Shown here piece after piece: positions 9,001 to 9,549 of a DNA stretch of 11,909 nucleotides. The position numbers were made by a program, and so were the translations under genes. This stretch comes from Candidatus Micrarchaeia archaeon. Lineage in GTDB: Archaea; Micrarchaeota; Micrarchaeia; CABMEP01. Each line of letters begins with the position of its first letter. Positions within the stretch are counted from its first letter, which is position 1. Location: the NCBI GenBank assembly GCA_038886535.1, contig JAVZXS010000014.1, positions 1-11,909 of the forward strand. The letters run 5' to 3'. The notes under the pieces are model-generated. The model had not been told where the DNA came from, made no database searches, and was given only the letters and a program-made list of their open reading frames with translations.

Positions 9001-9549
9001 GGGATAAGCCAACGTTCGTTCATGTTTGATAAAAAAGCGATTATAAATACCTGCACCAAGTAATGAAATAAATAAAATTAAAGCTAAAAAGCCAAGATAA
9101 TGATACAAAGTTAAATTCGAAATTCGAAATTCGAAATTCGAATATTTTTTAGAAGGAATAATTTTTTTGAAAGAAAAAGGAGAAAGTCTCTTTAAAATAC
9201 CTAAAAGAAAAGATTTAATTTTGTAAGTTTGAAGATGAAAGCGCAAAGAGATTTCTCCAAAAATTCCTTCGGTTTTTTTCTCGCCCGCATAAATTGCTTT
9301 TTCAAAGTCTTCAATTTGAGGCACTACTGCTTGTTTATAGGTAATTTCTTCTTGTTGAGAGTTTAAAAAATTATCAACCTCTTCCTTTGCTTGCTTAAAA
9401 TTTTCTTCTTTAATGTAACCTTTTTGAAAAGCCCAAGATAAGAATTTTAAAATAGTTTTCAGTTTTTTTTCTATTAAATCAAAACCTTCTCCTTTTTGAA
9501 TAAGGTTATCAATGTATTGGCGGATTTTTTTGGGATTAATATAATCCAT
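3034..9549 (-). CDS. Giant (2171 aa) membrane-anchored fibre/adhesin-like protein with an N-terminal integrase core-binding (SAM-like) segment
   Basis: From the ORF track. TM helix at about aa 149-169 (YHYLGFLALILFISLLGAGIY). The next domain, LSFQGRLTD...FKLY...GG...GVFSVLIG...YLGVTVG...MTPRQQIANVGYAINAETLQG, is typical of bacterial fibre proteins. Several GN(V/I)GIG(T/L)T motifs, Ser/Thr/Asn/Gly-rich repeats, and a short coiled-coil-like stretch near the C-terminus. Confidence 0.92.
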   Translation of the reverse strand: MDYINPKKIRQYIDNLIQKGEGFDLIEKKLKTILKFLSWAFQKGYIKEENFKQAKEEVDNFLNSQQEEITYKQAVVPQIEDFEKAIYAGEKKTEGIFGEISLRFHLQTYKIKSFLLGILKRLSPFSFKKIIPSKKYSNFEFRISNLTLYHYLGFLALILFISLLGAGIYNRFFIKHERTLAYPTSLTRAGRLLSFQGRLTDSLGNPISTATNVTFKLYNVPSGGSALYTAGACSITPDQDGVFSVLIGGSGYSPTPPQQVCGSEIPASIFTENANVYLGVTVGADEEMTPRQQIANVGYAINAETLQGFPPGTSINNIPFINNDGDLLIAVATPGIRSTYTSADFTISSAKTAIIQSAGTGEVILQATGSGALKLRTGGNTDANNRLTISNSGTVAIPSLSTGIVQTNASGELSSVLGTSGYIPKWTTTGLSTTSNIYENLAGNIGIGTTTPTAKLDISGSASLSGILAFRGTTDPKIDILNGENFGIRTSVGGDNGLTERLTLLNDGRIGINTISPHSSALLELSSTNKGFLAPRMNQTQRDAISSPATGLLIFNITTNKFNVYDGTNWSEIGGNTLWSSLLDPTANLTLNHSTYTTTFNSSVTTGTFFTINANSLTSGKGLYLSSTSTGLNTGSLLSIDWSPSSATSASGDLVKINIGSNGDVGNILNITDNNSTIFRVSETQIESAVPHVFTSSGDVSMAYDLIFTNQTSSNIKTYGPFTIDVGESFESNDLTLKTYNKGAVVVDSESLLALNSATVSSQLAVGTQTPSSIGGFYLTNSQTFGKALAILNQTENQDILTASSSGTPKLTITNSGNLQFHQASTITTTTGTLTLAPTSSNLQFFSSSNYITPSGNLVIAGNLTVPGTTTLNNQTYTWPSSTVNNGFLQYTSGGQLVWTTISATSLKWNALTDPDDNLTLNHSTYTTTFNSSVTTGTFFTINANSLTSGKGLYLSSTSTELTGNLAEFVLSGSNAGNTGNVVRIAQTGTSSSAVPLMVTNLGTGLSFRVNDETGDNDSTPFVIDSSGNVGIGTTSPLTKLDINDSLDPILRIAAAGSNSNVYINLNSRLGGSDRLAQIYSDWEGGLNFKSFSGVSTKFLDGSDVNLVIEGSGNVGIGTTSPLEKLDISGNATISGNLTFSGERTIASRAFNQLTIGDSQTGDILFSPGTGKQVRFFSSSNYINSSGNLVIAGNLTVPGTTTLNNQTYTWPSSTVNNGFLQYTSGGQLVWTTNISATSLKWNALTDPDDNLTLNHSTYTTTFNSSVTTGTFFTINANSLTSGKAFTMNVDALTSGNALSIISQSTSLTSTGSLLQIFHDPASSGGSGNLLSLETNSNSSAIPLIINNLGSGFSFRVNDETNDSSPFIIDSDGNVGIGLTNISANFKLHVIGDIRASNFKDNENTDYYLDPANTGTSLKTRAEIDIGTNIKIGSMLASGVNPEIDAGSRSIILKSSNDVAVCVGDTDCTGKLDAGTVDPPYTINGKKYATYLSSMTGVKEETTGSISLTTFNPQLNAYQYVIDFNNQEEGSDLWLFSKTTNLRKNMDKMTVLLTPNKNTRVWYKIDKEKFALYLYATTPTTISYRLTAPRFDYEKWSNRNDGGSTGFIINDPDQPSLLTLDNFGNLSPSEIKIVSQKYNPSSQTTNFNLLFENLNQLNYSLTNISQELVENLSTIKQLFSEKITAGLISAENIIVKNLLVSKNIIAENLNLTTQNLTIAGKTISQYIDEKIQNFLNANSYLLTTNEKIISPIVETEEIQFKNQNAKIKMQNDNGELEIVDNQNQPIAQFQTATKTTFLTGAVEIKSDESKGKLAQIILKGLEGKQAVVIDAQGNASFSGSLTAQSLQTQTATIEGTLISQEVQSSNLKTKSLESQQATIEGKLVAKEIESENINSLTRELANTQTDINEIQKLLAEIKNQPIPDITNQTNLSNTANLTNLNNPTNFENLTVTGSTNLYNATVSNSLVVGNLLLENDKILALSWELKLSALARINLFDGAVTIAKDGTITTKGTIIAQGGIQTSRIILDKDNPLQITNNSGKTLASIDASGSAFFRSLSLEKFTPATPSALIVSPMENFNKRGIFAPAIETASASAGIGILPENQQEVVIYNNNVRENSLIYLTPNSSIANYQLSVIEKNSCKALNSNCQPYFKVVVPTKNHPEIKFDWLIIN
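3847..3875. repeat. In-frame octamer array, inverted partner of 3002-3030
   Basis: Its reverse complement TTAACTCGTTAACCCGTGAACTCGCTAAC is 25/29 identical to plus-strand 3002-3030; encodes part of INSLTRELANT. Confidence 0.85.
4239..4351. repeat. Two in-frame heptamer micro-arrays
   Basis: 4239-4273: CATTTTG CATTTTG ATTTTTG CATTTTG ATTTTTA (protein KNQNAKIKMQND). 4320-4351: TAGTAGT TAGTAGA TAGGAGT TAGCATT TAGG (protein LNANSYLLTTN). Confidence 0.75.
5701..6025 (-). repeat. Internal duplication, copy A (about 108 aa)
   Basis: Near-identical to 6697-7018 (FFSSSNYI...TVPGTTTLNNQTYTWPSS...NANSLTSGK), with mostly synonymous differences and one extra Asn codon. Confidence 0.95.
6671..7018 (-). 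repeat. Internal duplication, copy B
   Basis: 6697-7018 matches 5701-6025; 6671-6798 matches 7661-7788 at an offset of 990 bp. Confidence 0.95.
7661..7788 (-). repeat. Internal duplication, partial copy C (NLTLNHSTYTTTFNSSVTTGTFFTINANSLTSGKGLYLSSTST)
   Basis: Near-identical DNA to 6671-6798. Confidence 0.95.
9113..9140. repeat. Perfect in-frame heptamer array (AAATTCG)x4
   Basis: aaattcg x4, encoding part of SNFEFRISNL immediately before the TM helix. Confidence 0.95.

Follow-up and report, generated by a model that had tools for sequence, protein, structure and literature searches.

Half of a recombinase-type core-binding domain at the start of a giant membrane-anchored surface protein, and its possible partner in related loci

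We have analyzed a stretch of DNA of 11,909 nucleotides, here called the window, which is positions 1 to 11,909 of contig JAVZXS010000014.1 in GenBank assembly GCA_038886535.1, a bin assigned to a Candidatus Micrarchaeia archaeon. It contains the gene for a giant protein, P0001, and our subject is the N-terminal segment of this protein, the head. The initial annotation had read the head as a SAM-like domain of tyrosine recombinases fused to a surface fibre.

The giant protein and its parts

The coding region and the segments of the protein are as follows.

3034..9549, minus strand: P0001, giant membrane-anchored surface protein of 2171 residues, translated from a single open reading frame (ORF)
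9394..9549, minus strand: head, residues 1-52, equivalent of helices C and D (second half) of a core-binding domain, by hhalign and a weak match to PF13102
9334..9549, minus strand: three-helix head, residues 1-72, from the AlphaFold2 model and conservation of the third helix
9184..9318, minus strand: putative cytoplasmic motif, residues 78-122, a predicted long beta-hairpin, from conservation and the strands of the model
9040..9114, minus strand: single membrane helix (signal anchor), residues ~146-170, the sole hydrophobic segment of P0001
3034..9039, minus strand: presumed extracellular stalk and repetitive fibre, residues 171-2171, the stalk being common to all relatives

The first 52 residues of the translation are those quoted in the initial annotation. 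The ATG at 9549 is the first start codon past an in-frame TAG that lies six codons upstream, and the homologous methionine is the start in 16 related loci, where it is preceded by 0-15 open codons. The start is therefore sound and does not lie downstream of the head, the eventuality against which the annotation had cautioned.

Kyte-Doolittle analysis gives one hydrophobic stretch in the whole of P0001, with the 19-residue windows starting at residues 143-156 exceeding 1.6, and this aligns with hydrophobic stretches of all the homologues. Its extent, residues ~146-170, agrees with the helix at about 149-169 proposed earlier. The flanking charges (three lysine plus arginine residues on the N-terminal side and two on the C-terminal side) do not fix the orientation. 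As no signal sequence precedes this helix, and the last 2000 residues are of surface-fibre type, we infer that the N-terminus is cytoplasmic. Residues 171-2171 probably form a fibre; homologues bear precomputed matches to PF13884 and PF04917, and P0001 itself has just a weak match to a PHROG of unknown function. No Phage_integrase catalytic domain (PF00589) was found in the 2171 residues at E ≤ 1 with a Pfam library that detects this domain at 86-116 bits in the control recombinases L037, L040 and L041. The general plan drawn in the annotation, an integrase-derived N-terminus followed not by a catalytic domain but by a single membrane helix and a fibre-type protein of ~2000 residues, is thus borne out.

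Between the head and the membrane lies the most conserved segment of the putative cytoplasmic region, the motif of residues 78-122, within which fall the invariant columns E83 to L119. It occurs in part of the subfamily only, and is absent in L006/P0026, P0018 and P0023. An amphipathic hairpin is predicted there with modest confidence (strands 82-95 and 98-111, predicted local distance difference test (pLDDT) 58-71). The motif matches no Pfam family, and a search of the ESM Atlas with residues 72-130 gave a best score of 0.90 to unnamed clusters of 46-51 residues, providing no lead.

The head corresponds to the second half of a core-binding domain

The core-binding (CB) domain is the SAM-like N-terminal domain of tyrosine recombinases, made of four helices, A to D. 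Taken singly, the sequence of the window lies at the limit of detection. Residues 1-70 match PF13102 at 16.2 bits (E = 0.014) over profile positions 44-96 of 98, below the curated Pfam cut-off of 22.3 bits used for Phage_int_SAM_1 and _5, and no SAM family was matched at E ≤ 1 by residues 1-180 or by the whole of P0001. PHROGs and NCBIfam gave no match to residues 1-145, and a sequence search of the PDB with residues 1-180 gave none at E ≤ 10.

The relationship emerges when the family is examined as a whole. A word-indexed search found six giant homologues of 1404-3054 residues, with 44-49% identity to P0001 over residues 1-180, and an exhaustive HMMER search with residues 1-145 found 22 cluster representatives at E ≤ 0.001. 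All but two of these match from within their own first six residues, the exceptions being P0011 (its best stretch) and P0028, in which the match is internal. PF02899 is matched at E ≤ 0.01 by 11 of the 21 new representatives, and one or other Phage_int_SAM family by 12, the match falling at about profile positions 38-83 in all but P0028, whose CB domain is complete and accompanied by a further half. Three homologues exceed the Pfam cut-off (P0011 at 25.5, P0027 at 23.5 and P0028 at 43.2 bits). Among 28 aligned heads (alignment A3), PF02899 is matched by 18 and PF13102 by 15 at E ≤ 0.1, in every case over the second half of the profile.

The alignment was then compared by hhalign with the L037 ORF, a verified recombinase (Phage_integrase 108.9 bits, SAM_1 60.6 bits). 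Residues 2-49 of the window protein align with residues 48-95 of the recombinase, the second half of its CB domain, with a probability of 94.9% and E = 4.3e-8. Taken together with the Pfam matches of 18 and 15 of the 28 heads, this places the likeness to SAM-type domains beyond chance at the level of the family. When the head profile was searched against sequences from the PDB, the rows were insignificant; they include the putative phage integrase 2key_A (E = 0.49) and Cre (E = 0.7), and the top row was L19e (E = 0.077).

No match to the head profile was found among 60 relatives of the source assembly (G000), and so the family was surveyed from the class to which the genome of locus L005 belongs; over residues 1-260 the L005 fibre is 66% identical to the window protein. 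In this reverse direction the head profile matches 186 of 301 genomes, a tally that includes one match in an unpublished genome (G382), on which nothing else here depends. For the 150 matches listed, the open frame has at least 1000 residues in 42 cases, 270-350 residues in 73, 351-999 in 27 and fewer in 8. Three recombinase-sized frames (~290 residues) were submitted to Pfam, and all three are true recombinases.

The window does not encode a complete four-helix CB domain. P0001 begins at the equivalent of the loop between helices B and C, the head matches only positions ~41-83 of PF02899 or 44-96 of PF13102, and the segment corresponding to profile positions 1-40, helix B included, is absent from the window. 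The core residues of the family (L16, K29, L30, F36, W39 and A40) are all retained. By sequence comparison, then, residues 2-49 of P0001 are homologous to the second half (helices C and D) of a tyrosine-recombinase CB domain, and the head very probably represents that half in a family in which the domain is split. The proposal of a SAM-like CB domain at residues 1-52 stands as to homology, but only helices C and D of the domain are present.

AlphaFold2 models residues 1-145 with three confident helices (6-18, 23-42 and 48-72) and a less confident hairpin (82-111), and the block-mean pLDDT for the head is 84 for residues 1-10, 95-97 for residues 11-60 and 83 for residues 61-70. The third helix carries the motif FKQ.KEE.DN, kept across the split subfamily in the alignment. 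A three-helix unit of ~70 residues is too generic for structure comparison to discriminate the CB fold. The top rows of a Foldseek search were IHF/HU-type proteins (E 0.34-1.6, query-normalised TM-score 0.13-0.23, root-mean-square deviation (rmsd) 16-18), and we rejected this likeness as artefactual, since in the model a long hairpin comes after the helices.

Whole and divided core-binding modules in related loci

We examined related loci, seven from genomes and 24 from metagenomes. The named fibre relatives are from Microgenomates, Roizmanbacteria, Woesebacteria, WWE3 and records labelled "Patescibacteria", with one labelled Gammaproteobacteria.

Some of the fibres carry a whole Phage_int_SAM_1 domain before the transmembrane helix (L008 at 69.1, L009 at 49.5, L007 at 36.0 and L011 at 31.4 bits), with two CB stretches each in L008 and L009 and one in L007 and L011. 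Reading of the sequences indicates whole CB domains before the membrane helix in L027-L029, L031, L034 and L035 also. The head of the window protein aligns with the second half of the single CB domain of L007. The best explanation is that the ancestral form had one or two whole CB domains, followed by the membrane helix and then the fibre.

Another 19 loci have a fibre that begins with the half-domain, as in the window, and in 15 of these an ORF of 157-190 residues lies directly upstream of the fibre (L005, L006, L012, L013, L015, L016, L018-L023, L025, L026 and L030). In the remaining four, the contig is cut (L017) or Laminin_G_3 and 23S_rRNA_IVP (IVP) genes lie upstream (L014, L032 and L033). 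The small ORFs contain a complete CB domain, matching PF02899 at 49.7 bits in L005 and 35.7 bits in L006, and then a tail. Ten of 11 aligned small ORFs stop at the same point, EFL, QFL or EFI plus two or three residues, while that of L006 extends four residues beyond the common end. The shared tail reads like helices A and B of a second CB domain; 8 of the 11 tails match PF13495 at positions 1-31 of 85 (E 0.0017-0.075), all below the cut-off. Because positions 1-31 in the tails complement positions 41-83 in the heads, it appears that one CB domain has been divided between two genes. Alignment of the small-ORF profile with the recombinase by hhalign recovered CB domain 1 only (E = 6.8e-4) and not the tail.

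Joining of the small ORF to the fibre by read-through or frameshifting was considered and rejected, as a stop lies 0-15 codons before every fibre start. By coordinates, the reading frame is maintained across the gap between the two in some loci and shifted in others.

The window shares with this split subfamily a head that starts from the equivalent of helix C, the single transmembrane helix and the conserved stalk. It has no small CB gene upstream, an IVP gene and a Laminin_G_3 gene being found there instead.

Further features were seen in relatives. In the homologue P0005 (3038 residues), precomputed matches to PF14890 (intein splicing) and PF01936 at about residues 1180-1600 suggest that its extracellular part contains an intein into which a domain is inserted, and P0023 has a weak Intein_splicing match. 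The fibre loci of L006 and L007 have a PaaX-like gene a few genes upstream (70-810, minus strand, PaaX_M 70.4 bits in L006; 510-1247, minus strand, in L007), which is not present in the window.

Proposed pairing of the two halves

The divided domain suggests how the head might function. The putative cytoplasmic head of the fibre, one of a giant-fibre family from CPR (candidate phyla radiation) bacteria of Microgenomates type, comprises CB helices C and D (residues 1-52) and the family-specific third helix (residues 48-72). The split subfamily has a small soluble protein carrying CB domain 1 and helices A' and B' of a domain 2, with the fibre starting at C' and D'. The fibre head would be a docking half that pairs with the A'-B' tail, rebuilding a four-helix, CB-like domain from two chains, and the docked small protein would thereby tether its intact CB domain, likely the part that binds DNA or a ligand, to the inner end of the fibre. 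In the window an IVP cassette lies in the junction and a lectin-type gene upstream, and the head may be an orphan or have a partner in unassembled DNA. Pairing of tail and head is the simplest reading of complementary halves at a fixed boundary in 15 of 19 loci. We put the probability of the whole explanation, a split CB head that docks its other half, at about 0.5. Docking taken by itself as the function of the head is close to an even chance, perhaps slightly under, and both the docking and any binding of DNA are inferred.

The model of the small protein from L005 has a confident CB domain, a disordered linker and a two-helix tail (helices 142-156 and 162-177, pLDDT 74-82). In a Foldseek search with this model, 32 of the 34 matches listed are by title tyrosine recombinases or their N-terminal domains, and of the other two 3c28 is Cre (from a PDB sequence search) and 2kob is unnamed. 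The matches include lambda Int, Cre, XerD, XerA, an integron integrase and isolated CB domains. None of them is at E ≤ 1e-3; lambda Int (1z1b_B) ranks first, with E = 5.7e-3 and probability 1.00, and 3nrw gives a target-normalised TM-score of 0.79.

We predicted the complex of the L005 tail (residues 125-178) with the L005 head (residues 1-70). The score was 0.52 (0.52, 0.51 and 0.53), compared with 0.00 for the best of three controls, with 100% agreement in contacts across runs and partner pLDDT of at least 74. Among 157 solved complexes 116 reached the mark for this prediction, as did 2 among 215 mismatched pairs; these counts are only roughly valid for the L005 pair, for which we supplied our own alignments. 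Scores of 0.60 or below among those passing came from 18 of the 157 solved complexes and from both of the passing mismatches. The prediction lends weak support to pairing of the L005 tail and head.

The junction upstream of the fibre

Upstream of P0001 the window contains the following.

9688..10068, minus strand: 23S_rRNA_IVP / four-helix-bundle gene (PF05635 73.5 bits, TIGR02436 90.3 bits)
9642..10129, no strand: IVP cassette, including inverted-repeat arms at 9642-9687 and 10084-10129, made of heptamer arrays
10141..11907, minus strand: Laminin_G_3 (concanavalin-like lectin) repeat protein (PF13385 220 bits, three stretches)

The IVP gene lies directly upstream of the fibre, at the position that in the relatives is the junction between partner and fibre. 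The arms of its cassette are 46 nucleotides long and imperfect, with 76% complementarity overall and 94% in an 18-nucleotide core; TRF finds arrays at 9640-9687 and 10077-10129. IVP genes of L005, L014 and L032 have the same layout, with arms of 33-36 nucleotides and different sequence placed 387-411 nucleotides apart. The cassette looks like a stem plus ORF of the rRNA intervening-sequence type, here placed before genes for giant surface proteins. The lectin gene occupies the position of the small CB partner gene in 15 of 19 related loci, and the order Laminin_G_3, IVP, fibre is repeated in L014 and in L032/L033. A second IVP gene lies upstream of the lectin gene in L014.

The initial annotation had suggested that the head might read the neighbouring heptamer arrays. 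These arrays are inverted repeats bracketing the IVP gene, and are thus arms of the cassette and not sites shared with the head; in three other loci they are of quite different sequence, and we do not uphold the suggestion. A box of sequence GGAATCTATAYRATT is found upstream of the partner genes in five loci (L015 3039-3053, L019 and L020 3124-3138, L021 3125-3139 and L026 3156-3170). It sits in an unusually long spacer (~550-700 nucleotides) before the small CB gene with degenerate direct and inverted copies nearby, and is a candidate operator for the CB proteins. The box is absent from the window, allowing up to two mismatches.

Elsewhere the junction takes several forms. In 10 loci there is a short gap with a conserved mini-ORF of 38-61 residues and a core LK.LFDPA.EG.PY (L018 3874-3990, L019 3874-3990, L015 3820-3972, L022 717-881, L006 5841-5999, L025 1837-2022 and others). 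By coordinates its ATG overlaps the stop of the small gene as ATGA in nine of the ten, L006 being the exception. Differences fall 374, 289 and 567 at the three codon positions (1292 codon pairs, nine loci), so that it looks like coding sequence. A 51-residue ORF at 9536..9691 on the minus strand of the window was considered as an equivalent and is doubtful, as the likeness covers the first half only and is encoded by the heptamer repeats of the cassette. Other loci have a different gene at the junction:

L005, 1735-2118: 23S_rRNA_IVP gene
L012, 822-1196: PD-(D/E)XK gene (PDDEXK_3, PF13366 130 bits)
L013, 1771-2388, and L016, 638-1231: genes like REP-associated tyrosine transposases

The genes of L013 and L016 match NF047646 at 48-50 bits, below its cut-off of 80, and there is a similar gene in L017. 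The junction between the split halves appears to be a hot spot for small selfish genes.

Downstream of P0001 is a second surface-fibre gene, P0004 (3-2651, minus strand, more than 883 residues), which runs off the window. It has a plain N-terminal signal anchor without a CB-derived head, and matches the phage tail-fibre family phrog_9942 (E = 9.8e-10). The 382-nucleotide spacer between the two fibre genes holds AAATCTT (x14.7) and TAACTCGC-type arrays at 2745-2847 and 2937-3042. A further array, AAATTCG x4.3 at 9113-9142, lies inside the fibre coding sequence directly before the membrane helix.

Provenance of the contig

The source assembly is a bin of 40 contigs estimated as 88% complete. Within the lectin region the contig of the window meets a run of N. 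Neither the contig nor the bin yielded a partner gene, so that the head is either an orphan or has a partner in unassembled DNA. The only matches to PF02899 in the assembly are the N-termini of two ordinary recombinases, and the IVP family has no match there beyond the gene in the window.

The content of the contig looks foreign to the kin of the source assembly. Besides the head profile, the neighbouring fibre P0004 was without a match in the 60 relatives, and the stalk (residues 165-330) had none at E ≤ 1e-5 in 300 genomes of the phylum sample. The GC content is 35.3% against 33.0%, and in tetranucleotide distance the contig is no outlier among those of comparable length. It may have been placed in the wrong bin, and so not belong there at all, or may have been transferred horizontally. 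With both possible, absence of the partner from this "genome" is weak evidence. The window is thus an incomplete example, weaker than the complete loci, with its partner gene absent and the contig possibly mis-binned.

Alternative explanations

A number of observations weigh against docking of a split domain. A partner gene was not found in the source assembly using either the small ORF of L005 (E ≤ 1) or a profile of 11 small ORFs (A4, E ≤ 10). Foldseek with the model of the window protein itself gave no match at E ≤ 0.001, and the wide VIA comparison gave a best Z of 8.6 that is tied with unrelated three-helix bundles. The score for the complex falls in the weak band, where split halves may pass by their likeness to solved whole domains, and it was obtained with the L005 pair and not with the protein of the window. 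The head is the least conserved of the three segments compared, at 53% identity to L005, against 91% for the motif of residues 78-122 and 87% for the stalk. By itself the head gives a confident three-helix model and may fold or act without a partner, the half-domain of P0028 has no clear first half in the same chain, and L014, L032 and L033 keep the head without an adjacent partner gene.

The last three of these points would fit an autonomous adaptor, in which the half-domain and the extra helix form a self-sufficient three-helix bundle that has no CB partner and binds no DNA, but oligomerizes the cytoplasmic ends of a trimeric fibre, for example, or binds some other cytoplasmic factor. VIA aligns 65-75 residues of the model (block-mean pLDDT 83-97) to many three-helix bundles with rmsd 2.2-3.0, the third helix is conserved across the subfamily, and the window is itself a locus with a head and no adjacent partner. 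An adaptor of this kind would hardly explain why 15 of 19 loci keep the complementary half at the exact end of the upstream gene, and the complex prediction leans weakly toward pairing; we consider it unlikely. Somewhat less likely again is the function offered in the initial annotation, a membrane-tethered DNA-binding module acting as an anchor for DNA or as a ToxR-like one-component regulator of sites close to the gene. A cytoplasmic N-terminus, one transmembrane helix and a large outside part do resemble the bitopic regulators, the head is by hhalign homologous to a DNA-binding domain, and helix D retains its basic pair and spacing (heads, KKL..(I/V)..KF; L037 recombinase, SRKLNSTKTFF). The adjoining arrays, which as arms of the IVP cassette differ in sequence between loci, and the lack of the GGAATCTATAYRATT box in the window both count against this. 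FliZ provides a precedent for a CB-like regulator without a catalytic domain, but the helix named as DNA-binding for FliZ and the integrases is helix B (alpha-helix 2) (PMC3367168). As only helices C and D are present and the equivalent of helix B is missing, a self-sufficient DNA-binding module is doubtful; what survives of the earlier proposal is an integrase-derived head placed before a membrane helix.

The least probable of these readings is that the head is a decaying remnant, its partner lost or displaced, which has no function and persists only by virtue of holding the start codon and lying in front of the signal anchor. The failure to find a partner in the bin, the status of the head as the fastest-evolving conserved segment and the rearrangement of the upstream region by the lectin gene and IVP cassette would accord with decay. 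The reading frame is nonetheless intact with the six core residues in place, and the ratios of head to stalk identity in loci without a partner are not clearly lower (medians 0.50-0.62, compared with 0.70; L014 pairs, 0.77-0.96; pairs not independent of one another). Whether the partner has been lost is moreover uncertain, the bin being incomplete and the contig possibly foreign.

Docking of the two halves might be taken further, to a plug-and-socket arrangement in which a soluble protein of recombinase origin, perhaps with DNA bound, would clip onto the fibre from within, with the junction a preferred landing site for selfish genes. We regard this extension as unlikely. If true, the nucleoid or gene expression would be coupled, physically or through regulation, to what the fibre contacts outside in host-attached bacteria, and an IVP cassette, a PD-(D/E)XK gene or a REP-type transposase could displace the partner, as in the window.

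Comparison with known systems

CB domains are known from recombinases, where they clamp DNA, and from a small number of soluble regulators, FliZ among them. Here a CB domain occurs without the enzyme on the putative cytoplasmic end of giant surface fibres, in ultra-small CPR bacteria. If the halves pair, this would be a natural split-domain docking that links the inside of the cell to an adhesin-like fibre, without a described counterpart, and would give a testable handle, in the form of two small domains expressible in E. coli, on how surface contact is wired to the cytoplasm in uncultured organisms. Recombinase-type N-terminal domains that lack the recombinase also mean that domain-based annotation may miscall the family as integrases. 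In the variant added by the window, other genes stand in place of the partner gene. Full-text searching of the literature turned up no publication describing CB domains on giant proteins or membrane proteins from CPR bacteria, and as far as that search reached the architecture is undescribed in print.

The head shares sequence homology with recombinases of the XerC/XerD type (PF02899, PF13102 and PF13495) over helices C and D, and fibre relatives and small partners have the whole four-helix form above Pfam thresholds. Unlike those enzymes, the window protein has the second half only, with no catalytic domain and with a membrane helix and ~2000 residues following, and a further helix stands where the canonical (D/N)P would follow helix D.

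Bitopic regulators of the ToxR/CadC type have a cytoplasmic N-terminal domain of nucleic-acid-binding type, one membrane helix and a large external part. Their DNA-binding fold is however a winged helix, and the external part is a small sensor rather than a fibre of 2000 residues. FliZ of E. coli, a regulator without recombinase activity, resembles the window protein in using a CB-type domain outside recombination, but it is soluble and its contact with DNA is assigned to the equivalent of integrase alpha-helix 2 (PMC3367168), which the head in the window lacks.

The nearest likeness is to the CB-anchored fibres of Microgenomates type (L007, L008, L009, L011 and L035). These have a membrane helix and post-membrane stalk as in the window, a C-terminus that also matches that of the window protein where the end is visible, and a CB-derived module in the same place. 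In those fibres the module is whole on one chain, whereas the window, with the partner gene missing from its locus, has the split form.

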